From: a virus
Direction: 5' to 3' (one strand)
Length of the DNA: 64,000 nucleotides
IMG/VR virus record: IMGVR_UViG_3300044655_000639
Span: 1-64,000 of that record
In this document: piece by piece, positions 106-48,237 of the stretch
How positions within the stretch are numbered: the first letter of the stretch is position 1
Layout of the letters: every line of letters starts with the position of its first letter
Made by a program: the position numbers and the translations under genes
Notes under the pieces: generated by a model
What the model was told of the DNA's origin: nothing
The model's input: the letters and a program-made list of their open reading frames with translations, nothing else
Database searches by the model: none

Positions 106-3100
106 ATGAACCTTACTGAACTACGTAATCAAGCTGCTAAGGATATTCAAGCTGAAAGATCTAAGATAGGATCTTCCTCCTATATTAACAATACAAACAT
201 ACCTTATAATGAGCCCACACTTGCTGATAGAAGATACACTGGTCTTGCTCCATATGGTGAACCTACTAAAGCAGAGAAGCTCTTAGAGGCTAGAAATGAA
301 AAGATAAATAGACTACATGCTCTTACATCTACAAGCTCTGGTGCTCAGCTACAACAAGCTCTATCAGACATTGTAGACCAGCAAGTGTACACAGATGCTA
401 ATGGTAACAAGTACCAAGAGATGTATGGTAAAGATAGTAATGGAAACACTACTATCACTAAGGTACCTTACACAAAAGAAAATGCATATGGTAATGAAGA
501 TACAAGAAATCTCTATATAGATAATACGCTAGAAGGGAATATGAAGTTAGGGTTAGCTCGTAGTGATAAAGGATTCCTAGGACGGTACACTCCTACAGAG
601 GACAGTAAAGGTAAGAAGTATGGATGGACTCCAGGACCTAAAGGTGTAACACCTCAAGATGGTGCCTTAATGGATATCCAACTACCATATAATGTAGCTA
701 CTCAATTCGAGCATGGTGTGCACTCTAACAGAGGACAACTGGCTAATAGAGCTATAGGTCAAGGTCCTGTATCAAAACAAGATATAGCAAACTTCGGAAG
801 TGGTAAGACTGAGTATACAACACAGAATGCTCCTATGTGGAATCAATCTGCTAATACTAATCCAAGACTAGCTCCAAATACTCCTCTACCTAAAGAAATG
901 GATAAACTGCATAAGTATCAAAATGGGTTACAGATAACTGATTCTAACCTAATAGATGCACTACAGTACGGTGTTGGTAGAAAAGCTGCTGGAATAGCAG
1001 ATGCTATTGTGGATGCTGGAGGACAAGTAGCAGTAGCTGGATATGGTATGATGAATCCTGAGATGACTCAAGAGCAAGTACAAAAGAAGATGGCTAAGAC
1101 TATGGGTGGAAACTCTTTCACCAAAGACTACTACAATAAAAATGGGGACTTCATAGGACTAGACAAGTACAAGAAAGCTGCAGAGTATGGATATGATGAT
1201 GCTACTACTCAAGCTGCTATGGCAGACTTCGGTAAAGCCTTTGATAGTGGAAGCCCTGTGGAGATGGCTAAGTCTATAGCACGTAATCTAGATGCTGCTC
1301 CTGAATTTATAGCAGAGAGTGCTGGAGAATTCCTGACTGGACCTATGAGAGCTGCAGGTGTAATCCTTAATACATTCGACTATGCTAATAAGACTCTAGA
1401 GAGAAGACAAGAAGAAACTGGTAAAGCATACACTACCCTAGGAGATAAAGCTCTAGCAGGTCTAACAGGATGGGGACAAGCTATACTGAATAAAGCTGGT
1501 GTAGATGAGATGATCGGTAGAACAAAGATCGTATCTGGTGTAATGGATAAGCTGATCAAGTCTAATAAGCTAACAGATGGGATGGTATTGAATGCTGGCA
1601 AGAGACTAGCAGGGGCACTGACAGTAGCAACTGGTAAAGGACTATATGAAGGTACTGAAGAAGTAGCACAGCAGTTCTTAGACATCGTAGGAGCTAAGCT
1701 TGGGGATGAAAAAGCTAATGAAATCTTCTCTAGTAAGACAGGAAGAGAACTGTTCCAAGCATTCGGAGGAGGGTTTGGGAGTGGTGCTGGAATGCATGTA
1801 GTAACATCCCCTAAAGAAACCATAGGAGCTGTACTGTCTCCTGTAATGGCTACTACTAATAAAGGACTAACAAGCCTAGCAGAAATATCAGCTAATAGAA
1901 CAGTAGCAGATATAGATGCAAGAAAAGCTAAAGAGTACATAGCAAAACAAAACGAAGTGACAGCAGCTGAGAATGCTAAAATAGAAGAGATCAAAGCTCA
2001 AGAGGAAGCTGTCACTCCTATTACTTCTACTACTACAGCAGATACGCTAGATCTAACAAGAGAAGATATATCTACTGATGAGATAAATAGTGCTGCTACA
2101 GATCTGGTAACTAAAACCATACAAGCACAAGAAGCTGGTACTGTATATGAACCTACAGTTAATGAGCAAGCATTCCAAGCTGCATATGGTGAAGCTGTTA
2201 ATGCTAAGTTCACTGAAGTATATGCTGACATAGCTACAAATACAAATACTACTAATGCTGGGCTTACCAAAGCAACACCTAAACAAATGTCAGAAGGCTC
2301 TAGGAAACTAAATGATAATCCAGAACTTGCTGCACAAAATACTGTACTAGACAAACTTAGTACAAAAGTATCTGAGGCTAAAACAGAAGTTGAAAGAACT
2401 AATGCAGAAGTTGCTTATAATTACCACCTCAATAATGTAGTTACTCCACTAATTAACAGTATAAGAGGTTTTGATGATGCAGGTAATCTAATAAGCACTG
2501 TTGAAACTTCTAGCGCAACTACTCCTGCTAAAGGAACTCCGACTATGGCAGTTAGTGATAGAACAAGTGAAACTATTCAACAAGAAATAGAGGAGTTAGG
2601 TACAAGTAGGGATAACACCTATGTAGAGGACCTGCAAAGATATGTTGATAATGGAATGGGCATAGAAGAAGCTAAAAAGAAAGCCCACTCTAATTCGAGA
2701 GAAACATTCAATAAGATAAAAGCACTAGAAGAAGAACTCAAGACTGTTAAGGCTAATGAAGTATCTCAAGATAAAGCATTCAAAGAACAAGGAATATCTG
2801 ATGATGATCTGACAATCTACAAGAATGCTGGTATAGCAAATATCATATCTGTAGACGATAGAGCTAAAGGGTTAGGTATTGAAATAGATACTGATAAGGT
2901 ACAATTAAAAGAAGGAAGCACTAAGAAGAATAAGCTGTATGATCCTATGAAAGCTGATAATGCAACTCTAGATAGTATCATAGAAAGTGGTTTCAATAAA
3001 GATACGATAGATGCATTAGATGTAAGCAATAAAGGATCCACATTTCTGCAAAGACTATCTAAACACTTCACATTCGGCAAAGAAAAGCAAGTAGAACTGA

Positions 3101-6100
3101 CTAAGATAGCAAAAGACATCACAGCTAAACTATCAAATCCTACTGTTAAAGAAGCTATGACTAAAGTATCTGGTACTGATACATCTACAGCACAAGCACT
3201 AAGAGCTATCACAGTGGCTGTAAGTGCTGTACGATCAGCTACTACAGCAGAATTCGATATCACACATGGTGAAGGTGCTAAACATAATGGATATGCTCCT
3301 CAACTGGGGCTAGCAGAGCAAGTAGGTAAAGCATACTTAAACTCATTCGGAGCTAAGCTAAAGGGTAAGGACTCTGAGAGTATGGCTGCAAAGCATAAAG
3401 AGATAGGTATGAATGTACTGAAACTAGCAGAAGCTGCTGGATATGTAGAGAGTGCTTCTAATATGTCATTCCAGGTCCATAATAGAGTAACACCTAAAGG
3501 AGATAGAGTATCCACAAGTAGAGATGGTGGTAAATCAGATATTCCTGTAGGACAGAAGTCAGGTACATTCGCTAATACTGGGTATAGAGTAAAAGGTGAC
3601 AAAGACTCTTCTCGTATACCTGAGAATGCTGTAGGTTCTACTCTATCAAGTCTGGATAAGATATTCAATCCTATCAATGAAGAGATGGTTATGAGTACTC
3701 CATCTGATGTAGTAACATCTAAGAATCCTATCTCAAAAGAGCACCAGCAGATCATAAAAGATATGCAAGGTATGAAGTTCAGAATAAAAGCTCCATTCAT
3801 AGAATTACTCAAAAGTATAAAGGCTTCTCTAGGTGATAATATGGAGGCAAATCTATCTACGAATCCTGATATTAAAAAGCTATTAGGACTGGATAAGAAG
3901 TCTACGCTACTGACAAAGATGGGAGACTCTGGTAAGAGTATCCAAAGAAAAGGTAATCTACTAAAGCTACTGGAGAACCTGGATGAACTAGAAGCCATGA
4001 GTAAAGATGGATTCCACTTCACATTAGATACTGCTATCAATGAACGTGTACATATAATGCAAACACTTCTAGAGTTCCAAGGTGATAAGTTCATGTCAAG
4101 ACAGATCCTAACAGGAGGAGAATACACTACTGGTAACAAGTATGAGTATGATATGCTGATCAATGACATAAAAGACAATCTACCAAAGGGTATGGAATAT
4201 AATGATGATAGATTGACTGCTGCTGTAAAAGACTTCAATAAAGGAGTATTCAATGGTGATCAAGCTGTGTTCAACATAGTAGCTACTATGAAAGCACTAG
4301 GCTTCGACTCTCCATTCAAGATGCTGAATGTCCTGCAAGGTATGGCTGATGTACAGAAAGCTGATGGGTACAAAGTGACTACTGAGTATGTTCCTAGTGC
4401 AGATGCTACTGCAAGTGGTGTAATGAATACTCTAATGAATCTAATCGGTATGCCTTCAATACAGAACATGTTCAATAACTGGATAAGTGGAGGTAAGTTC
4501 GATCCATATACTGCACTACTAGACGCTGTAGATCTAGATAAAGAAGGTTCTTTCAGTGAGAGAGCATTAGCTACAAACAATGTATTCAATATACTATATA
4601 AAGGATCTAATCGTGACATTACAAAGTATCCTATCATCAAATGGATATATGGTCAATGGAAAGGCAATACTGAAAGAGAGATGGCTGATAGTATAGCAGT
4701 AGACCTGCTAAAAGCTGCTACTACAGGAAATCAAGATGCACTCAATGAAGTCAATAGAATCCTAGCTACAGCTAATAAAGAAGGGTATGAGGATATACTA
4801 GTAGGCGATATAGCTGTACGATCAGGAGATGCTCATCTAATAAAAGAAGCAGAAGAACTAGAAGCTACTATCAAAGATGGTAACTATGTAATATTTGACA
4901 CTGAGACTACAGATAGTACTCAAGGTAAAAATAACCATATCATACAAGCATCTATTCGCATCTTCAAGAATGGCGTAGAACAAGAGCCTGTAATGATACA
5001 TGTGCCACTAGAAGACGGTATCACCATAAGCCAAGGTGCATTCGAGATCCACAAGGTATCAGAAGAGATTCTTAAAAGTAAGATAAAGAATGGTGAAACA
5101 AGAAAAGGTCAGATAGCTAAGATACGTAGAGCAATAGGTTCTCTGCCTATAATTGCACATAGTGCCTCTTTCGATACTTCAGCTCTTCAATTAGGAGACG
5201 GTAAGATTATCACTAATAAAGTGCATGACACTATGGCACTAGCTAAGATTGCTCAATATGAGAAAGCAGCCCAAGATGGTGGAAAGACTACAGGTGGTGT
5301 TATAAATATAAAGGCTCTTTCTAAGACATATGGTATAGAGTATGATGATAAAGCCTCTCATGATGCTGCATATGATACAGCTCAAACAAAGCTACTAATA
5401 CAACCAATGCTAGATAGATTCAATAGCGTAAAGAGTAAGCTAAAAGTAGAAGGTGCCAATAATATCAGTAACCTAACAGAAGAAGATAAAAAAGTAATAA
5501 CAGACTACTACCAAACCAACATAAGTTCTCTATATGTTCCAGCACTAGATAAAGCATTCCCTGGTGTAAAAGAGTATAGTACTGCCATGAAGACACTGTA
5601 TGGTATCCTACAAACAAGTAAAGTATGGGATGGTAGAATCAAGAGTGCTATGGGTGTAATGCAAGGCACTGGTAATAAGATGAGTGTACGTAAGCTAAAG
5701 AATGTTGTACAGGATGTAGACGGTGATCTAACACAAATAGACAAAGAGATGGATAATGAAACATCATTCCTGGTAAACCTACAGCACTCAGTAGATGCTG
5801 CGCTACTACTACTATCTATGCAGAAAGTATTGAATAATCCTAATCTAACAGAAGTTAGTGTAATGACTGTACATGATGACTTCAGAGCACAACCTAAAGT
5901 ACTACGTGAGATAATGGCAGAGTATAATAAGCTAACAAGAGAAGTAGCAGTAAAGTATGACTTCCTCAGTGTAGCAATGGATGAAGTACAAGAAGTGATA
6001 GAGAAGCTGGAAGCAAAAGAGAACAAGACTCCAGAAGAGATAAAAACTCTATCAGTAGTAAAAGCTCAATATAACTCATTCAAGAATGATAGACAATTCC

Positions 6101-9100
6101 CTGGTACTGATGGAAAGCTAACAGTAAATGAAATGCTAGAAGCTAAGAAGAAATTCTTAGAAGGAGACATAGGTCTAAAAGTACTAGGAGATAAAACTGT
6201 AGATCTAAGTGGAGTAGATACTTCTGTATCTAAGCATAAAGCCAAAGAGAAAGCAGCACAGACTCTATCAGAGAAACTACATGAAGCACTGAACAATGGT
6301 GCAGATGTAGCAACAGCTCTACAATCTGTGGTAAATACTATAAAGGTGAGTGAAGAGTATGGTGCTCTAAAGCAGAAGGTTCTAGATGCTCTATCAGGTA
6401 AGACTATAACATTCAGTAGAAGTGATCAAGGCTTTACTGGAGGTAATGGTAAAGTAACAATACCTACTGGAAAGATAGGAGAAGAAAGATTCGTAGCTTC
6501 TGCACAGAGAGCTACAGCAATGACTCCTGAAGGGCTAATAGAGACATTAGCACATGAGATAGATCATGCCTATAAGCTAAGCTATATAGAGAGTGATACA
6601 GGGCTTAAATCACCTGAGGTGAAGTATCTAAATAAAGTGGTAGAAAAGCTACGGAGAGAGCGAGATAAAGGTAATCTAACAACACTATCATCAGAAACCC
6701 AAGCACGTATAAAGTATATAGTAGAACATAAAGATGCTGGGAGAGCTGTGAGTGAGCTGGTATCAGTACTAGAGAATGAAATCTCTGTATCCAATGAGAT
6801 TAAAGGAATAGTACAAGCACCTACACTTCTAGAAGTGCTATCTAACCTCATCAAGAGAGTGAAGGAATGGGTTAAAGCAATGACTCAAGATGAGAGAAAA
6901 TCTCGTATAAGTGAAGCTATGAGTAATGATGATACTACTATGATGGCACTAGAAGCATCTCTAATAGAAGTAAGTATTAACTCTAAAGCATATGGTGTAG
7001 GAGATGGTAAAGCTATGGCTAGAGCTTCAGCTAAGTCAGATACTGATACGGTAAATGATCCATACTTCAATGAGAATCTAAATCCGTTAGTAGCAGCTAA
7101 TAAAGCTATGGCTAAGTCTAATAGATTCCTATCAGACTGGATGATCATATGGGGTGATCTAATAGCTCAAGAAGTAGGACCTATAGCTGGTAAGTTCCAT
7201 AATAAGATGAAAGAGAAATATCCTGTGTATGTTCAGACAATGAGTATGATACGATCAGGATTCTATGAGAGTGAGTGGATGCAAAAGATGCATACAAATC
7301 TAGGAGTAGATGGATCAAGATCTGAAGTAATCAATAAGCTGCAGACTCTACGTCATGAGATAGGGCAACAGACAGGAGCACTAGCTAGAAAGATGGCAGA
7401 GCTTAAAAGAAGACAAGAAGAAGTCTATACAAAGAAAGAGCGTAATACATTATATGCTATGTTCAAGACTGGTATAGGGCATCTATCAACAGAAGAGCTA
7501 AAGACAGTACATGATGGTATCTTCAATGGAAGTATGACATATAAAGAAGCTATAGCTATAGTATCTGATGGTATGACTGCTGATCAAATAAGACAGTTAG
7601 ATAATGTTGCTAACTACGTAAATACTGGTAATACTACTGAGACAGCAAGAGAAGTGAATACACTATTCATAGAAGGTGTATCAGAAGAGAAAGGTGGAGC
7701 ATACGTAGCATTGAAAGCATTATCTCAAATACCTGGATCACTAGAACTGCTAAAGGGCATGGATAAAGATATGCTGAAAGAGATGCTGTCTATTGCAAAT
7801 GCTAACAAACATCTAAGTGAAGTAATCAATAGAGCAAAGACAGACTACACAGGTAAGAAGATCACTAATGAAGCTGGTTACTATAGTGACTATGATGTAA
7901 CGTATGCTATGGACATCTTCAATGAGAATCATGAGTATGTACTGATCACTGCAGAAGATCTAAAAAGAAGCATCTACTCAGAAACCAATGGATGGTTTGT
8001 AGTAAAGGGTGTAGAGAATGGAGTAGGTCTGGTAGGAAGAAAAAGTTATTCTCCTACTAATAGACCAGGTGTTGGACTAGAAGTAACAAGATACCAGAAT
8101 GGTGTATACCTAGATCCAGAACAATCAGCTAAGATGGATAACATAATAGGAAAGTTAAAATCTAAAGAAGCAGTATCAGCATATCTAGATGCAAACAGTA
8201 TCACAATGGATAATGGTAAATACAGATTTGTAATAGATGAGAAGACTAAAAGAGAGAAACTTGATCTAGTAGAGGATTCAGCTGAGTCTCTATATAGAAC
8301 ATATATCAGAAACTTCGAACTAGTACATGCTCAAAGTATTAAGGATATAGTGCTCAATGAAGGAATTCAACATATCAATACAGAAAAGGATATGCTAATC
8401 CTAAATACTATTCTAGAAACTAACAATAAAGAGAGAGGTCTACTAAGTAGAACTAAAGTACTACCATTCCTAAAAGTAAACTATGATATGAAGATGACAT
8501 ATGATGAAATGGCTAAGAAATACCCATACATTGCAATGTATTTTAGAACTCCTAATAATCTATCAACATATCAAGAGTTCAACCAGAACATAACATTTGT
8601 AAAGAAAGGTGAAGGTGATGTGCTGTTAGGATACAAGCCAGGAACATTATTCGCAGATAGTGATAATAGATCCCTAGCAAAATGGGAATCTATGTATAAG
8701 AAACTAATAGTACTATCAAAGCAAAAGATGATTGTAACAAACCCTAAGAAGCTTGCTGTAGATGCTGCTGCTAACATGGGGATCCTATCTATGTATGATA
8801 TGGACCCAATGTCTATATTCAGAGGAATGAAAGATGGATTCACAGAGTACCATAAGTTAACAGCTAAAAGAAACACTCTAGTAGATGTGGAACTTAAAGC
8901 AAGAATAGCCTTCAATAGTAAAGATACTGCAAAGTATGAAGTACTGATGAAAAGACGTGATAAGATAAATGCTCAGCTAAAAGAGATGAAGTTCTATGAT
9001 GCATGGAAATCAGGTTTCATACAGTCATACAGTACAGATCTAGTACTTAAAGAGTTTGATACTATCAGTGGTATCCAAAGAGATATAGATATATTCATAG

Positions 9101-9792
9101 ATAAATATACTATTGATGAGAAAGGTGATCCAAATGCATTGTATAAAGCTATAAAGTGGTGGCAAGAAGCTGGAGGACCAAAAGCTAATGTAGAAACATT
9201 CTTCAGTGCTGTTAGTAAAGCAAGTGCATTAAAAGGGACAATGTTAAGTACTGAGTTAAAAGAGCTGAGTGAGAGATTAAAGAATAAGAAGAATGAAGAG
9301 AGTGTGGCAAGGTATGTCAGCGAGTTCCTAGGAAGTCCCTCATCTGAAGTGGTAAGCTATGGTAGTGCTACTATGGTGTTGATAGATGCCCTATCTAAGT
9401 ATCTTCTAGCAAATCACCTAATGACTCAAGAGAATCCTAGAAAGGGTAAAGTAGGTGCAAGACCTATGTATACTAAAGAAGAAGCATACGCTATAGCTCA
9501 AGAGACATTCATAGACTATAGAGATAATCTTCCAAAAGAAGTACAGACACTAAGTGACTATGGTGTATTACTGTTCCCAGCATACTGGATGCGAGTACAG
9601 AAGATACTAGCGGGACTAGCATTGTACCACCCTATAAGCTCGCTAGGAGGATTTGCAATAGAAGCTTCACTAGGTATTGAGAGCATGAGTGCAATGAACT
9701 CTAACCTGTTTACAAAGGGGGCAAATGAAGGGCTTATAAACCTAAACCCAGCTGAGGTGATAGATGCAGGTTCTGTAATGGTATTGCTCTAA
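106..9792 (+). CDS. Virion-encapsidated RNA polymerase (N4 gp50-like), with inserted DEDDh exonuclease and HExxH motif
   Basis: 3228 aa with no Cys seen. T7-superfamily motif A DATASG (4402), motif B RDITK..IYG (4612-4653), motif C VHDDF (5872). Last late gene, converging on the middle genes as in N4. Confidence 0.93.
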   Translation: MNLTELRNQAAKDIQAERSKIGSSSYINNTNIPYNEPTLADRRYTGLAPYGEPTKAEKLLEARNEKINRLHALTSTSSGAQLQQALSDIVDQQVYTDANGNKYQEMYGKDSNGNTTITKVPYTKENAYGNEDTRNLYIDNTLEGNMKLGLARSDKGFLGRYTPTEDSKGKKYGWTPGPKGVTPQDGALMDIQLPYNVATQFEHGVHSNRGQLANRAIGQGPVSKQDIANFGSGKTEYTTQNAPMWNQSANTNPRLAPNTPLPKEMDKLHKYQNGLQITDSNLIDALQYGVGRKAAGIADAIVDAGGQVAVAGYGMMNPEMTQEQVQKKMAKTMGGNSFTKDYYNKNGDFIGLDKYKKAAEYGYDDATTQAAMADFGKAFDSGSPVEMAKSIARNLDAAPEFIAESAGEFLTGPMRAAGVILNTFDYANKTLERRQEETGKAYTTLGDKALAGLTGWGQAILNKAGVDEMIGRTKIVSGVMDKLIKSNKLTDGMVLNAGKRLAGALTVATGKGLYEGTEEVAQQFLDIVGAKLGDEKANEIFSSKTGRELFQAFGGGFGSGAGMHVVTSPKETIGAVLSPVMATTNKGLTSLAEISANRTVADIDARKAKEYIAKQNEVTAAENAKIEEIKAQEEAVTPITSTTTADTLDLTREDISTDEINSAATDLVTKTIQAQEAGTVYEPTVNEQAFQAAYGEAVNAKFTEVYADIATNTNTTNAGLTKATPKQMSEGSRKLNDNPELAAQNTVLDKLSTKVSEAKTEVERTNAEVAYNYHLNNVVTPLINSIRGFDDAGNLISTVETSSATTPAKGTPTMAVSDRTSETIQQEIEELGTSRDNTYVEDLQRYVDNGMGIEEAKKKAHSNSRETFNKIKALEEELKTVKANEVSQDKAFKEQGISDDDLTIYKNAGIANIISVDDRAKGLGIEIDTDKVQLKEGSTKKNKLYDPMKADNATLDSIIESGFNKDTIDALDVSNKGSTFLQRLSKHFTFGKEKQVELTKIAKDITAKLSNPTVKEAMTKVSGTDTSTAQALRAITVAVSAVRSATTAEFDITHGEGAKHNGYAPQLGLAEQVGKAYLNSFGAKLKGKDSESMAAKHKEIGMNVLKLAEAAGYVESASNMSFQVHNRVTPKGDRVSTSRDGGKSDIPVGQKSGTFANTGYRVKGDKDSSRIPENAVGSTLSSLDKIFNPINEEMVMSTPSDVVTSKNPISKEHQQIIKDMQGMKFRIKAPFIELLKSIKASLGDNMEANLSTNPDIKKLLGLDKKSTLLTKMGDSGKSIQRKGNLLKLLENLDELEAMSKDGFHFTLDTAINERVHIMQTLLEFQGDKFMSRQILTGGEYTTGNKYEYDMLINDIKDNLPKGMEYNDDRLTAAVKDFNKGVFNGDQAVFNIVATMKALGFDSPFKMLNVLQGMADVQKADGYKVTTEYVPSADATASGVMNTLMNLIGMPSIQNMFNNWISGGKFDPYTALLDAVDLDKEGSFSERALATNNVFNILYKGSNRDITKYPIIKWIYGQWKGNTEREMADSIAVDLLKAATTGNQDALNEVNRILATANKEGYEDILVGDIAVRSGDAHLIKEAEELEATIKDGNYVIFDTETTDSTQGKNNHIIQASIRIFKNGVEQEPVMIHVPLEDGITISQGAFEIHKVSEEILKSKIKNGETRKGQIAKIRRAIGSLPIIAHSASFDTSALQLGDGKIITNKVHDTMALAKIAQYEKAAQDGGKTTGGVINIKALSKTYGIEYDDKASHDAAYDTAQTKLLIQPMLDRFNSVKSKLKVEGANNISNLTEEDKKVITDYYQTNISSLYVPALDKAFPGVKEYSTAMKTLYGILQTSKVWDGRIKSAMGVMQGTGNKMSVRKLKNVVQDVDGDLTQIDKEMDNETSFLVNLQHSVDAALLLLSMQKVLNNPNLTEVSVMTVHDDFRAQPKVLREIMAEYNKLTREVAVKYDFLSVAMDEVQEVIEKLEAKENKTPEEIKTLSVVKAQYNSFKNDRQFPGTDGKLTVNEMLEAKKKFLEGDIGLKVLGDKTVDLSGVDTSVSKHKAKEKAAQTLSEKLHEALNNGADVATALQSVVNTIKVSEEYGALKQKVLDALSGKTITFSRSDQGFTGGNGKVTIPTGKIGEERFVASAQRATAMTPEGLIETLAHEIDHAYKLSYIESDTGLKSPEVKYLNKVVEKLRRERDKGNLTTLSSETQARIKYIVEHKDAGRAVSELVSVLENEISVSNEIKGIVQAPTLLEVLSNLIKRVKEWVKAMTQDERKSRISEAMSNDDTTMMALEASLIEVSINSKAYGVGDGKAMARASAKSDTDTVNDPYFNENLNPLVAANKAMAKSNRFLSDWMIIWGDLIAQEVGPIAGKFHNKMKEKYPVYVQTMSMIRSGFYESEWMQKMHTNLGVDGSRSEVINKLQTLRHEIGQQTGALARKMAELKRRQEEVYTKKERNTLYAMFKTGIGHLSTEELKTVHDGIFNGSMTYKEAIAIVSDGMTADQIRQLDNVANYVNTGNTTETAREVNTLFIEGVSEEKGGAYVALKALSQIPGSLELLKGMDKDMLKEMLSIANANKHLSEVINRAKTDYTGKKITNEAGYYSDYDVTYAMDIFNENHEYVLITAEDLKRSIYSETNGWFVVKGVENGVGLVGRKSYSPTNRPGVGLEVTRYQNGVYLDPEQSAKMDNIIGKLKSKEAVSAYLDANSITMDNGKYRFVIDEKTKREKLDLVEDSAESLYRTYIRNFELVHAQSIKDIVLNEGIQHINTEKDMLILNTILETNNKERGLLSRTKVLPFLKVNYDMKMTYDEMAKKYPYIAMYFRTPNNLSTYQEFNQNITFVKKGEGDVLLGYKPGTLFADSDNRSLAKWESMYKKLIVLSKQKMIVTNPKKLAVDAAANMGILSMYDMDPMSIFRGMKDGFTEYHKLTAKRNTLVDVELKARIAFNSKDTAKYEVLMKRRDKINAQLKEMKFYDAWKSGFIQSYSTDLVLKEFDTISGIQRDIDIFIDKYTIDEKGDPNALYKAIKWWQEAGGPKANVETFFSAVSKASALKGTMLSTELKELSERLKNKKNEESVARYVSEFLGSPSSEVVSYGSATMVLIDALSKYLLANHLMTQENPRKGKVGARPMYTKEEAYAIAQETFIDYRDNLPKEVQTLSDYGVLLFPAYWMRVQKILAGLALYHPISSLGGFAIEASLGIESMSAMNSNLFTKGANEGLINLNPAEVIDAGSVMVLL

Positions 9793-44971: not shown

Positions 44972-45346
44972 ATGGATTTATTCAAAACAAACGGGCAACT
45001 AAAAGCTAGAGGGAAACTTCTAGCAGACTTGCAAGATGAGCGTACAGCGGCAGAGTATGAAATCTGGAAACAGACTAATGATGAAACATTCATGGAAGAT
45101 GTTATAGTTGGTCAAGATGAAGATGGCAACGACATTATAGAGTCACAGCAAGTCAATGTGTTTGAAGCTCCTATCGTAACTGAAGAGGAACTAGATGCTT
45201 ATCTAAAGACACGTTACCGTGAGATGAGACAAGCGGAATATCCTAGTCCAACAGATTATCTCGATGCTATCGTCAAGGGCGATACAGTAGCTCAAAAGGC
45301 TTATATTGACGCTTGTCTAGCAGTGAAAGTGAAGTATCCGAAATGA
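44972..45346 (+). CDS. Putative tail fibre chaperone
   Basis: YREMRQAEYP..YLDAI..VKVKYPK; follows the fibre gene. Confidence 0.6.
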   Translation: MDLFKTNGQLKARGKLLADLQDERTAAEYEIWKQTNDETFMEDVIVGQDEDGNDIIESQQVNVFEAPIVTEEELDAYLKTRYREMRQAEYPSPTDYLDAIVKGDTVAQKAYIDACLAVKVKYPK

Positions 45347-45657
45347 AGATGATTATAGCTCTATTAATAACGCTATCTTTGAGTGCTGAGACGTTCTTTG
45401 AGCAAGAGGATAAACAAAAGCACATCATAGGTTCTATGGCTATCGGTGGAGTTGCTACTGGATTGGCAAGACATTACGGTTCTAATAAGTTTGAGGCTAT
45501 TGCTATCGGTGTTGCTTCGGCTTTGTTAGTTGGTATCGCTAAAGAGGCTATTGATGGTAAAGGCTATGGCACTGAGGATGTAGGCGATGTGTATGCAGAT
45601 ACAATTGGAGCAGTTAGTGGTAGTTTATTATCTGCTCAATTCAATTGGAAGTTTTAA
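45343..45657 (+). CDS. YfiM/DUF2279-like membrane or secreted protein
   Basis: Signal peptide, DK..H, KE..D, D..AD motifs. Confidence 0.6.
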   Translation: MKMIIALLITLSLSAETFFEQEDKQKHIIGSMAIGGVATGLARHYGSNKFEAIAIGVASALLVGIAKEAIDGKGYGTEDVGDVYADTIGAVSGSLLSAQFNWKF

Positions 45658-45720
45658 GTTTATGACGTATTCTAAGTTGCTTATGAAGCTGCCTATAGTT
45701 CTTAGAAAATTTATTTATGG

Positions 45721-46410
45721 ATGGTTTATGTAATGTTAGATTACCTAAGACGTTTGTGGGCGAGATACAATCCTTTCGACATCAAATGGTATATCCACGA
45801 TATGTCTGAGCCTCTCCACGAATTTAGAAAAGCACTCGAAGAGATACGGCATGGGAATAATGTCACTATCGCATTATTAGAAAATGAACTAGCGGAAAAA
45901 GAGTTTATCCTACAGCAATTTGCCGATGTCATCCCTGACATGGTATGGCTCAAAGAGTATGATGATGAAGGTAGTGGTGGTAAATATGTGTATGCTAATC
46001 GTGCTATACGTGACCAATTACTGTTATGCCCTAACCCAATAGGCTCTACGGATATAGAACTGGCATTGAGAGCTAAGGAAATCTATGGTGTTCATAATCA
46101 CACGTTTGGTGAGAAGTGCAGTAATAGTGATTTGGCTACTATCGAGAACGATAAGCTCGGTCATAAGTCAAGCAGGTTTTTGGAGTCGGGGCTAGTAAAG
46201 GGCAAGATGATGTATCTGGAAGTGCATAAATCTGTTGTACGTACTGACAAGGGAAAAATCATCGGAGTGTGTGGAAGTGGCAGGATTATCACTGATTATA
46301 TCGAAGCCGTTAAAGAGCTAGAGACTCTACAACAAGATGACATCAAGTGCTGTCTATCCATCAAGAAGCTAGTTGAAGTGTTTAAAAAATATGAATTCGA
46401 GGAGGAGTAA
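45721..46410 (+). CDS. Stand-alone PAS (PAS_4/PAC) domain protein
   Basis: IPDMVWLK..GKYVYAN..IG.TD.EL..EVHKSVVRTDKGKIIGVCGSGRIITD. Confidence 0.8.
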   Translation: MVYVMLDYLRRLWARYNPFDIKWYIHDMSEPLHEFRKALEEIRHGNNVTIALLENELAEKEFILQQFADVIPDMVWLKEYDDEGSGGKYVYANRAIRDQLLLCPNPIGSTDIELALRAKEIYGVHNHTFGEKCSNSDLATIENDKLGHKSSRFLESGLVKGKMMYLEVHKSVVRTDKGKIIGVCGSGRIITDYIEAVKELETLQQDDIKCCLSIKKLVEVFKKYEFEEE

Positions 46411-46412
46411 GT

Positions 46413-46637
46413 ATGGCTGCTGAAACGTGGGAGGAGGTACGGTATCACGTCCTTGGACAACTTCCCGTCCTCAATAAAAAGATTGATAGTCTTGAGACAA
46501 AGCTAGGAGTCGTAGAGACTAAGTTCGAGTCAGGGATGGCGGTGATAACCACTAAGATGGGGATGATAACTTTTATATCATCATCAGTCGTATCTATCAT
46601 CGTAGGACTTGCAGTACATTTTTTGGGAGGTAAGTAA
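46413..46637 (+). CDS. Holin/antiholin-like protein (coiled coil plus C-terminal TM)
   Basis: Topology and position in the lysis cassette. Confidence 0.5.
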   Translation: MAAETWEEVRYHVLGQLPVLNKKIDSLETKLGVVETKFESGMAVITTKMGMITFISSSVVSIIVGLAVHFLGGK

Positions 46638-46762
46638 TGCACAAAGTAGACAAGCTCTCTAGGGAGTTGGCAAGACTGATACAAGAGAAGAAATACAAAG
46701 AGGCGAAAGCTATATACGAAGAACTAGGCGAAGTCCTAGAGACTTATCAATGGTGCTGTTAG
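46637..46762 (+). CDS. Hypothetical protein, 41 aa, ending WCC
   Basis: TAATG coupling, GGAGG RBS. Confidence 0.5.
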   Translation: MHKVDKLSRELARLIQEKKYKEAKAIYEELGEVLETYQWCC

Positions 46763-46770
46763 GAGAATAG

Positions 46771-47223
46771 ATGATGCAAGGTTTTCATCCAAAGTTTACG
46801 TGGGAAGAGCTTATACGTACAAATCATAGTAGCTTACAAGCTCAAAATATCAAAGAGGCACTGAAGTATCAAAACGCTGGTAAGCGGTTATCAAAGCTGT
46901 TGGGAAGCATCAGAGAAGCGTATGGATTTCCTATCTCTATTACAAGTGGGTTTCGTTGTCCAGCTCTCAATAGGGCTGTTGGAAGTAAGGCTAAGACCTC
47001 ATCACATATGAGGTTTGAAGCTGCTGATTGTATTCCCGTTGGTAAAGATTTCAAGCACTTCTTTAATTGGCTCAATGAACATAGTATCGAGTTCCCTGAT
47101 TTACGCAAAGCAATCATCGAACATCATAAGGGGTTGGTGCATATTGAGGTGAAGATGGATGCTGAGGAGCCTCAAGTATTTTACACTACGAATGACAATG
47201 TGACGTTTAAGGCGGTGGCATGA
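46771..47223 (+). CDS. Endolysin, peptidase M15A family
   Basis: ITSGFRC..LNRAVG...SSH...AAD...VHI. Confidence 0.88.
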   Translation: MMQGFHPKFTWEELIRTNHSSLQAQNIKEALKYQNAGKRLSKLLGSIREAYGFPISITSGFRCPALNRAVGSKAKTSSHMRFEAADCIPVGKDFKHFFNWLNEHSIEFPDLRKAIIEHHKGLVHIEVKMDAEEPQVFYTTNDNVTFKAVA

Positions 47224-47441
47224 GTAAGTTACTAGAGCTTATTACAGACCCTAATGGGTCACTGTCCCATACGAAGATATGGAGCAATATTGGGATGGCT
47301 ACATTGACAGCTACGTTTATCATCGGGACATACAGTCATGGTATCACTCCTGAGCTGATTGTGGCGTATGGTGGAATTGTAGTGTTCGGGCGTGCAACAA
47401 GCAAGTACTTGGATACTAAATCAGTATCTACGGGGGAATAG
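47220..47441 (+). CDS. Putative holin
   Basis: Two TM segments; ELITD.NG.LS.TK pattern; follows the endolysin. Confidence 0.6.
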   Translation: MSKLLELITDPNGSLSHTKIWSNIGMATLTATFIIGTYSHGITPELIVAYGGIVVFGRATSKYLDTKSVSTGE

Positions 47442-47777
47442 ATGGTATGGATTACGTTTTTAAAGATGTACTGGAAATATGTTTTGGTTTTTGTGTGCTT
47501 CTCACTATTTTCTATCTCGCTAGTGGGGATGAGGATATCCAACACTGAGTTAAGAGCTGAGAGGGATATGTACTCTACAGCACTAGAGTTCCAGAATGCT
47601 TCACTACTAAAGCATAAGAAAGAATATGATGAGAAGTTATCTAAACTGCCTAAAGAGATTGAAAAGATTACTGTTAGGTATAAAGTTATTTATCAAGGTA
47701 TAGATGATTGGAAAGGAGATGATAATGCAACTGATTGTGAAAATGCTGATAACTACCTTCGTAGTTTTAACTATTAG
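47442..47777 (+). CDS. i-spanin (Rz-like)
   Basis: N-terminal TM plus coiled coil; overlaps a lipoprotein gene. Confidence 0.7.
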   Translation: MVWITFLKMYWKYVLVFVCFSLFSISLVGMRISNTELRAERDMYSTALEFQNASLLKHKKEYDEKLSKLPKEIEKITVRYKVIYQGIDDWKGDDNATDCENADNYLRSFNY

Positions 47778-47961
47778 TGGATGTAGCCATAAGATACTAT
47801 ATGTGCCTAGTGAGTGTAATATCCCAGACTACTCAGAAGTGGTCTTAGATCTAACAGATAGAAATACAACTCTAGGAGAATCTAAGAGATGTACTATCAA
47901 CTACACAAAACAAAAAGAAGCTAATGAGAAGATGGTGAAAGCCATAAAGCTTTGTCAATAA
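47725..47961 (+). CDS. o-spanin lipoprotein (Rz1-like)
   Basis: Lipobox ISGC; AAGGAG RBS inside the i-spanin gene. Confidence 0.7.
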   Translation: MQLIVKMLITTFVVLTISGCSHKILYVPSECNIPDYSEVVLDLTDRNTTLGESKRCTINYTKQKEANEKMVKAIKLCQ

Positions 47962-47992
47962 AGTAGATAGAATAGTGACAAATACCATAGAT

Positions 47993-48003
47993 GATGGTAT
48001 AAT
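47993..48003 (+). promoter_or_regulatory. Extended -10 host-type late promoter (TGGTATAAT)
   Basis: TGnTATAAT; similar sites at about 71-79, 37918-37926, 40424-40433 and 54472-54480. Confidence 0.5.
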
Positions 48004-48033: not shown

Positions 48034-48237
48034 ATGACAACAACATCTGGAAAACTCGTAATAATTGACCTAGGTATGTCAACAGCACATTACCTATGGA
48101 ATGGTGCTACACTTGAAGGTGTGGTAAAAGTATTCGTCTATAAAGGAACGTCTTTGACTATCACAGTTAAAGACAAATCAGTAATCCCAGTAGCAGAGAT
48201 GAAACTCGCTGGTATCAAAGTAAAGGAAGTAAAATGA
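48034..48237 (+). CDS. Hypothetical protein
   Basis: ORF directly after the promoter. Confidence 0.6.
   Translation: MTTTSGKLVIIDLGMSTAHYLWNGATLEGVVKVFVYKGTSLTITVKDKSVIPVAEMKLAGIKVKEVK

Follow-up and report, generated by a model that had tools for sequence, protein, structure and literature searches.

Introduction

What is a PAS protein doing among the lysis genes of a phage? This question is raised by IMG/VR virus record IMGVR_UViG_3300044655_000639, of which the first 64 kb (the complete record has 74,282 bp) are analysed here and called the window. In this DNA, a gene for a stand-alone PAS protein is followed by the genes of a tail-anchored (TA) coiled-coil protein and of a cysteine-ended micropeptide, and these three genes (45721-46762, the trio from here on) stand at the head of a set of lysis genes. 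Burst size and fitness of a phage are set by the timing of lysis. To our knowledge, the only examples of signal-dependent lysis timing that have been studied are the lysis inhibition of the T-even phages and that of ICP1, both of which are triggered by superinfection. The original prediction for this locus, made from the letters of the DNA, was that lysis may be gated by host redox or metabolic state through the interaction of the PAS protein with a holin or antiholin. After the analysis described here, we hold it to be an evenly balanced question whether the trio is a sensor-gated lysis regulator. The analysis shows the fold and the family of the PAS protein, its conserved pairing, a link with lysis genes, the exchange of the three genes as a unit and their purifying selection; we infer that the three products bind one another, that the PAS protein senses a ligand and that lysis is affected.

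A PAS Fold without an Output Domain

The assignment of the first product of the trio to the PAS superfamily appears secure by its predicted structure and is weak by Pfam alone. The window protein by itself matches PAS_4 (PF08448) with an E-value of 0.0067 and 17.1 bits, below the threshold of 23.1; the same family is found in the precomputed annotation of most homologues (36-57% identity), and the bacterial relatives score above the threshold. The AlphaFold2 (AF2) model, with a mean predicted local distance difference test score of 87.4, comprises a 50-residue N-terminal helix, a five-stranded PAS core (strands 74-80, 86-92, 150-159, 162-174, and 180-189, with helices between them) and two short C-terminal helices. 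In a Foldseek search of the PDB, this model retrieves PAS and LOV structures with a probability of 1.00 and E-values of about 4e-6. From the N- to the C-terminus, the protein is composed of a WxKYNPFD motif, the 50-residue helix, the core (residues 74-189), a J-alpha-like helix, a Cys pair and an FKKYEF tail. The signature of the core is formed by PDMxW and by H127-T-F-G-x-x-C133-x-N-S-D137, and the cysteines of the protein are located at positions 103, 133, 184, 210, and 211. Judging from the N-termini of the homologues, translation probably starts at 45733 (M5). The version of the protein in the ESM Atlas has been called from residue 28 and would lose the conserved WxKYNPFD motif.

No transmembrane (TM) segment, kinase, GGDEF, helix-turn-helix (HTH) or other output domain was found in the protein with Pfam, NCBIfam and sequence features. 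A VqmA-type HTH, in particular, was not found with Pfam and NCBIfam, and the C-terminus consists of the two short helices and the Cys pair. The earlier description of a PAS protein with several cysteines and no kinase or other output domain is thus borne out, by the AF2/Foldseek fold on the one hand and by the lack of any Pfam or NCBIfam output match on the other.

With respect to the type of ligand, the PAS classes considered include flavin, thiol and heme sensors. A LOV flavin photosensor was rejected: the NCRFL-type Cys motif is missing, the invariant Cys133 is located where F-alpha begins, and the RFLES stretch belongs to strand G-beta. An ArcB-type thiol redox PAS was also rejected, given that hhalign puts C180 of ArcB on A92 and C241 on Y165. 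As regards heme, the invariant His127 is situated two residues before F-alpha, DosP is only a general fold match (Foldseek rank 35), and no match to FixL, DosP or any other heme-PAS was obtained at E up to 1 in a profile search of the PDB sequences, a search in which the PAS family gave nothing significant. An uncharacterised protein of Cellulophaga phage phi18:3, which is a fold match in BFVD, was discarded as a relative because it does not match the profile of the PAS family. No match to the PADLOC defence models was found.

Phage Proteins and Bacterial Sensors

A database search with the PAS protein retrieved 166 relatives of 200-240 aa, nearly all of them from uncultured phages. In an alignment of 42 sequences, the motifs PDMxW, YAN, NHTFGxxC, LEVxK, and GxGRxxTxY are invariant, and the end of the protein is conserved as well, the C-terminal Cys pair being present in 99 and the FKKYEF tail in 105 of 120 homologues. 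Scans of public contigs for the family yielded 15 viral and 80 metagenome loci. Among prokaryotes, represented by one genome each of 185,579 species, the sole match lies on a 6.3-kb phage-like contig of a metagenome-assembled genome (MAG). As far as these searches reach, the family appears to be essentially viral.

The metagenome matches are divided into two groups: short phage proteins and bacterial proteins of 320-1551 aa. The bacterial proteins, which are GGDEF-EAL enzymes and HisKA-HATPase kinases (loci L053, L062, L066, L085, and L057; L101-L105), contain an N-terminal or internal PAS domain that is 40-45% identical to residues 60-200 of the window protein. Matches to this PAS subtype were also found in 12 of the 121 Campylobacterales genomes sampled. 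When 39 phage and 37 bacterial PAS cores are compared, about 25 positions are 95-100% conserved, among others: P72, D73, M74, W76, K78, Y89, N93, D111, H127, T128, F129, G130, C133, S136, D137, E155, K170, R188, and T191. The HNHTFGEKC segment had been regarded in the original prediction as an extra element of the window protein; it is indeed present, but it is no oddity: conservation within the family is highest in this motif, which the bacterial sensors have as well. Since HTFGxxC is conserved in the phage and in the bacterial cores, it represents the signature of a PAS subtype common to phages and to bacterial GGDEF-EAL and kinase sensors, taken over by the phages minus the output domain. 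The retention, at 100% in the PAS core, of the signature residues in common with bacterial sensors argues that the PAS protein still senses something. The lead toward a Campylobacterales host comes from the one MAG contig and from the bacterial PAS relatives, while the phage DNA is from lake water.

A Membrane Partner and a Cysteine-Ended Micropeptide

The predicted parts of the TA protein are a coiled coil on the cytoplasmic side, in which a W-x3-R/K-Y motif is found, then a TK motif, and a TM helix that ends the chain. A same-strand open reading frame (ORF) of 70-93 aa comes next after the PAS gene in all of the first 15 viral loci; its product has a coiled coil in the N-terminal part and a TM segment in the C-terminal part. 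The pairing was counted in the 47 of the 49 short-PAS loci that have downstream sequence. In 40 of these 47, the distance from the PAS stop codon to the TA gene is -43 to +22 nt; in the other seven, a peptide ending in [YF]xxxC is found directly after the PAS gene instead of the TA protein. Since one of the two pairings holds in 47/47 loci, the arrangement appears to be far beyond chance.

The micropeptide, which follows either the PAS or the TA gene, occurs, apart from the window, in 17 distinct loci. The Cys with which it ends (C41) is invariant, position -4 from the end is Tyr or Phe, and Y37 is more than 90% conserved. As for the loci that lack the TA gene, a PAS type of 243 aa (L029, L031, L032, and L034) and the database protein P0102 have two to three N-terminal TM helices fused to the PAS protein, while in L050, L073, and L075 the PAS protein has no such fused helices. 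A separate TA gene and fused TM helices would be complementary architectures, which fits a need for membrane anchoring. No clear pattern was seen in the covariation of the N- and C-terminal motifs of the PAS protein with the presence of the TA protein or the peptide.

No Pfam family was found for the TA protein or for the micropeptide, and no PHROG family for the TA protein of the window. A profile of the TA protein retrieves 1415 cluster representatives (E up to 1e-3), mostly of 66-100 aa, among 1.84 billion proteins. Because this family is far larger than the PAS family, TA-type proteins may also work without a PAS partner.

Neighborhood and Exchange of the Trio

The linkage to lysis genes was counted over the 27 distinct loci with at least 2 kb of downstream sequence. 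In 22 of them, an endolysin or holin-like gene is located less than 1 kb downstream of the PAS gene, so the neighborhood survey that had been proposed for the PAS homologues found them linked to lysis. The linked endolysins belong to five unrelated families: M15_3, M15_4/VanY, GH108 with PG_binding_3, DUF5675, and GH24-like lysozyme. Locus L007 (48-1242 and 2238-3557) encodes two PAS paralogues; the second, of 215 aa and with 33% identity to the PAS protein of the window, comes right after an overlapping pair of i- and o-spanin genes. This locus also contains a 439-aa N-terminal portal fragment upstream of the main PAS-TA-peptide-M15-portal string; a duplication or a chimeric assembly may account for the second PAS gene and the portal fragment.

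The trio is also shared with an otherwise different phage. By blastn, the block from 45376 to 46762 is 91.6% identical over 1387 bp to locus L004, and the flanks of the two are unrelated. The PAS proteins encoded in both blocks are 93% identical, the TA proteins 100% and the peptides 97.6%. Downstream of the block, L004 carries a DUF5675 endolysin, a gene of 593 aa and a different small membrane protein. Because the block is the only DNA common to both and the lysis genes of L004 differ, the trio represents a mobile module that is exchanged as a unit and seems to function beside unrelated endolysin-holin sets. A natural variant of the window region is found in contigs from public runs, which diverge right after 46762 and rejoin at 47592; in this variant (46762-47592), other DNA takes the place of the endolysin gene, of the holin gene and of the beginning of the i-spanin gene.

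The products encoded at 46413 and at 47220 had been put forward as the possible partners of the PAS protein. The former, the TA protein, is near-obligate (40/47 loci), but the latter, the holin candidate, is not conserved with the module, as L004 illustrates. A contact specific to the 47220 holin is judged unlikely, since the near-identical trio of L004 adjoins an unrelated endolysin and holin; the comparison favours an effect that is mediated by the TA protein or, more generally, by the membrane.

Between the window and L004, 52 of the 67 nucleotide differences in the PAS gene fall at third codon positions, the 11 differences in the TA gene cause no amino acid change, and the five in the peptide gene cause one. 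The variants found in public runs are also mostly at third codon positions. Because the differences within the shared block are overwhelmingly synonymous, all three genes are judged to be under purifying selection.

How the Trio Might Act

In the reading that we prefer, the PAS protein would be a cytoplasmic sensor, probably dimerising through its 50-residue N-terminal helix, whose ligand pocket would derive from bacterial cyclic di-GMP (c-di-GMP) and histidine-kinase sensors and would include the invariant residues His127 and Cys133 at the start of F-alpha. The phage-specific tail, with its Cys pair and FKKYEF, would stand in place of the enzymatic output. The protein would act at the inner membrane through the TA coiled-coil protein, which it would control or by which it would be tethered, and the Cys-ended micropeptide would be a third subunit. 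In some phages, the fused N-terminal membrane domain of the PAS protein itself would replace the role of the TA protein. The signalling state of the PAS protein would alter the behaviour of the membrane partner, either an antiholin-like brake or a co-holin or depolarising helix, in such a way that holin triggering is advanced or delayed, and the timing of the burst would follow an intracellular cue, for example redox or metabolic state. Holins are triggered by depolarisation of the membrane, and for this reason a membrane helix controlled by a PAS protein could advance or delay any holin. More tentatively, and with distinctly less confidence, the trio can be pictured as a portable input to the lysis clock, of a kind not known from any studied phage: the membrane-tethered PAS protein might read host redox, quinone or a metabolite through its His/Cys site, perhaps together with the C-terminal Cys of the peptide, and the TA helix might turn this reading into a general event at the membrane by which any holin is triggered or held back.

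Several points weigh against a sensor that gates lysis. The neighbouring holin is exchangeable, so any action on a holin must be generic or run through the TA protein, and the latter has been assigned to no known holin or antiholin family. Many PAS domains bind no ligand. In addition, five of the 27 loci, from two clades (L018/55/79/84/91 and L050/73/75), have no recognisable lysis genes near the pair. In one of these clades the PAS-TA pair is isolated between genes of the opposite strand; in the other (L073:4875-6665, L075, and L050), a PAS-peptide pair is placed among replication- or chaperone-looking genes, which by eye, with no scan of family libraries, resemble the ribonucleotide-reductase small subunit and GroES. 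The PAS protein of this second clade lacks the tail cysteines and the TA partner, and is followed by a protein of 70-74 aa ending in YKYAC. Finally, the linkage may partly reflect a general position in the late operon, since tail-fibre genes on one side and lysis genes on the other are the usual neighbours of the module.

The effector could also be assigned in a different way. The TA protein might be the holin itself, or a subunit that the holin requires, similar to XhlA of PBSX, with the PAS protein and the peptide acting as its cytoplasmic antiholin in the manner of RIII and the holin T of T4. This version narrows the preferred reading down and names another effector; we regard it as unlikely. 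The TA protein has attributes of a holin in being a small protein with one transmembrane domain (TMD) and in having its gene in the lysis operon, directly before the endolysin in L016, L044, L047, and L027. In these four loci and in L007, moreover, no other membrane protein was seen next to the endolysin within the available stretch. The endolysin of the window is soluble and needs a hole, and the helices of the 73-aa holin candidate are weakly hydrophobic. Weak matches to PHROG families annotated as unknown, holin or hemolysin were obtained for a few relatives of the TA protein (the holin family in one of 33 TA members, the hemolysin family in one of the 33 and in two of 137 TA relatives). 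On the other hand, most loci possess a separate holin-like gene, and neither Pfam XhlA (PF10779) nor a Pfam holin was matched by any of the 170 proteins scanned, that is, the 33 members (E up to 0.01) and the 137 relatives (E up to 0.001). The charged hydrophilic C-terminal tail typical of holins is also missing, because the chain stops 0-3 residues after the TM helix.

Two further explanations dispense with the sensing of a lysis cue. Many PAS domains have no known ligand, and the PAS fold might serve as a non-sensing scaffold in a late membrane complex, for example in the assembly of lysis proteins or in superinfection exclusion together with the YfiM-like protein encoded upstream. The two clades in which the pair is found away from lysis genes would agree with such an accessory role, as would the YfiM-like gene that accompanies the module in the window and in L004; this gene, however, is absent from all other loci, and the strict conservation of the pocket-region residues with bona fide bacterial sensors makes a mere scaffold quite unlikely. 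PAS domains also commonly dimerise, and the phage core shares 40-45% identity and the same signature residues with bacterial multidomain sensors. The PAS protein might accordingly be imagined as a decoy which forms heterodimers with host sensors of its own subtype (GGDEF-EAL enzymes and histidine kinases) and blocks or hijacks c-di-GMP or two-component signalling late in infection, its position among the lysis genes being incidental. This idea is improbable: it accounts neither for the obligate partner in the membrane, or the TM domain fused in its place, nor for the peptide with its terminal Cys, nor for the recurrent position immediately ahead of endolysins from five families, and the conserved phage-specific tail (105/120 homologues) suggests that the protein has an output of its own.

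Relation to Known Systems

The closest functional analogues of a sensor-gated trio are the lysis inhibition systems of T4 and ICP1. In T4, the holin T is inhibited by the periplasmic antiholin RI and the cytoplasmic antiholin RIII (PMC11413866, PMC8385771), and in ICP1 the corresponding proteins are TeaA and ArrA (PMC7182436). As proposed for the trio, phage accessory proteins in these systems tune the timing of a holin to a signal, and RIII works from the cytoplasm on a holin with one TMD. However, they have no kinship to the trio in sequence or fold, and RI, RIII, and ArrA lack a PAS or any other small-molecule sensor fold. Their signal is superinfection, whereas the trio heads the lysis cassette and moves between phages with different holins.

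Among phage PAS receptors, the closest is VqmA-Phage of vibriophage VP882, a ligand receptor encoded by a phage that governs host killing (PDB 7dwm; PMC8284805). It is a structural match to the PAS protein (Foldseek rank 30), but it has an HTH output and acts on transcription, while the PAS protein of the window has no HTH, is encoded in a lysis cassette and has a membrane-protein partner. The architecture of the trio is found neither in VqmA-Phage nor in the T4 and ICP1 systems. The best structural matches are short LOV proteins (PpSB1-LOV, SBW25-LOV, and MrLOVe; PDB 5j3w, 7yx0, and 9vf7), in which the PAS core is likewise flanked by an N-terminal and a C-terminal (J-alpha) helix and an effector domain is lacking. 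They differ in that the phage family, in which the NCRFL-type Cys motif is missing, has HTFGxxCxNSD, the tail with the Cys pair and FKKYEF, and membrane partners.

The bacterial GGDEF-EAL and HisKA-HATPase sensors (L053, L062, and L066; Campylobacterales) have PDMLW, HTFGExCxNSD, LEVHK, and GxxRDIT identical to those of the phage protein. They have enzymatic outputs, in contrast, and lack the phage N-terminal motif, the Cys-pair/FKKYEF tail, the TA protein and the peptide. The nearest named PAS protein is ArcB of E. coli (hhalign probability 90%, E 1.6e-6 over ArcB 149-278), which has a similar membrane-tethered layout of coiled coil plus PAS. ArcB senses the redox state of quinones through cysteines. 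Unlike the window protein, ArcB lacks the HTFGxxC insert; its redox cysteines are not conserved in the window PAS, which has no kinase.

As to the TA protein, XhlA of the B. subtilis PBSX lysis cassette (PF10779) is a small one-TMD coiled-coil protein with an N-terminal soluble part and a C-terminal TM segment. We know of no PAS protein that pairs with XhlA or with the mycobacteriophage protein LysF1b. The latter is a one-TMD lysis regulator with an N-terminal TMD and an N-out/C-in topology (bioRxiv 10.64898/2025.12.04.692442). Both resemble the TA protein in being small one-TMD coiled-coil proteins of lysis cassettes that are needed for, or modulate, the holin. XhlA has the same domain order, but the TMD is N-terminal in LysF1b.

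Searches of the full-text literature revealed no PAS protein described in the lysis cassette of a phage, which agrees with the statement in the original prediction that a signal-controlled lysis system of this kind was not known to be described. We place the trio within the known kind of regulated lysis by holin and endolysin, to which it would add a new type of input module. If this is true, a cytoplasmic ligand or redox sensor would be wired into the lysis step, which is a new kind of input. The system is compact, with three genes in about 1 kb, and seemingly compatible with unrelated endolysin-holin sets; it could also become a tool for ligand-controlled lysis. The analysis also defines a PAS subtype (HTFGxxCxNSD) common to phage proteins and bacterial c-di-GMP/kinase sensors, and draws attention to a 41-residue Cys-ended micropeptide and to a large family of tail-anchored phage proteins that have been missed by annotation pipelines.

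The Source Phage and Its Lysis Genes

The source of the window is, by the comparison of its proteins, most probably an uncultured N4-like podophage. This assignment is made because the portal protein is about 50% identical to the portals of N4-like phages of Escherichia, Salmonella, and Pseudomonas, and because an ORF of 3228 aa at 106-9792 has the size expected for the N4-type virion RNA polymerase. DNA near-identical to the region is contained in lake-water metagenomes from 17 studies. Metatranscriptome contigs of one lake sample hold 53-65% of the sampled words of the region; as these are contigs, and DNA carry-over is possible, they are not evidence of transcription. Among cultured phages (50,697 phage records), no match was obtained by megablast of 45000-48000 or by tblastn with the PAS protein, with the TA protein and with two of its relatives.

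The region 44972-47961 forms a single, densely packed gene string on the + strand, with eight ORFs from 45343 on (Table 1), and no terminator-like site was found within it. The gene order given in the original prediction (YfiM-like protein, PAS protein, coiled-coil/TM protein starting 2 nt later, 41-aa peptide with WCC, M15 endolysin, holin candidate, spanins) agrees with these ORFs.

Table 1. Features of the lysis region of the window. Positions are those of the window; TM, transmembrane segment.
Feature	Position	Strand	Length (aa)	Characteristics or basis
YfiM-like/glycine-zipper membrane or secreted protein	45343-45657	+	104	
Mobile block	45376-46762			Only DNA common to the window and L004 (IMGVR_UViG_3300046008_000416); ends at the stop codon of the peptide
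Stand-alone PAS protein	45721-46410	+	229	AF2, Foldseek and homologues
Tail-anchored coiled-coil protein	46413-46637	+	74	TM 48-74, at the extreme C-terminus
Micropeptide	46637-46762	+	41	Helical-hairpin-like; ends in YQWCC
M15 endolysin, soluble	46771-47223	+	150	Pfam and PHROG
Holin candidate	47220-47441	+	73	Two weakly hydrophobic helices; phrog_1322 membrane protein, E 9e-18
i-spanin-like protein	47442-47777	+		N-terminal TM 9-33 and coiled coil
o-spanin-like lipoprotein	47704-47961	+		Lipobox ISGC at residues 24-27

The lysis-region genes are predicted, by the spacing of their junctions, to be translationally coupled. The final codons of the PAS gene (GAGGAGGAG TAA) double as the ribosome-binding site (Shine-Dalgarno sequence) of the TA gene, which starts 2 nt on. 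The TA and peptide genes are joined by TAATG, the start of the second overlapping the stop of the first, and the peptide gene is separated from the endolysin gene by an 8-nt spacer with AGGAG. Further downstream, the junction between endolysin and holin candidate is an ATGA overlap, and that between holin candidate and i-spanin gene reads TAGATG.

The product of the gene upstream of the trio matches the YfiM family lipoprotein of NCBIfam at E 3.5e-7 with 30 bits, below the cut-off of 117, and the PHROG lipoprotein at E 7e-9; it has a signal-like N-terminus with a hydrophobic segment at 3-20 and no Cys. Its counterpart in L004 is 84% identical over 101 aligned residues. The endolysin belongs to Peptidase_M15_3 (PF08291; E 2e-16, 60.5 bits against a cut-off of 23.2) and matches the endolysin family phrog_894 at E 7e-22; no signal, signal-arrest-release (SAR) or TM segment was found in it. 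As for the holin candidate, its homologue in Ralstonia phage RS138 is encoded between an endolysin and an Rz-like spanin. The two last genes show what is expected of a two-component spanin (TM segment, coiled coil, lipobox, and overlap at 47704-47777), an assignment by these features with no family match, and the i-spanin-like protein is 29% identical to the product of the matching gene of L004. Just past the stop codon of the o-spanin gene, and before the gene at 48034, a strong sigma-70-like site is located at 47975-48003 (GTGACA, 17 nt, TATAAT, with TG; 11 of 12 matches), which marks the end of the lysis unit.

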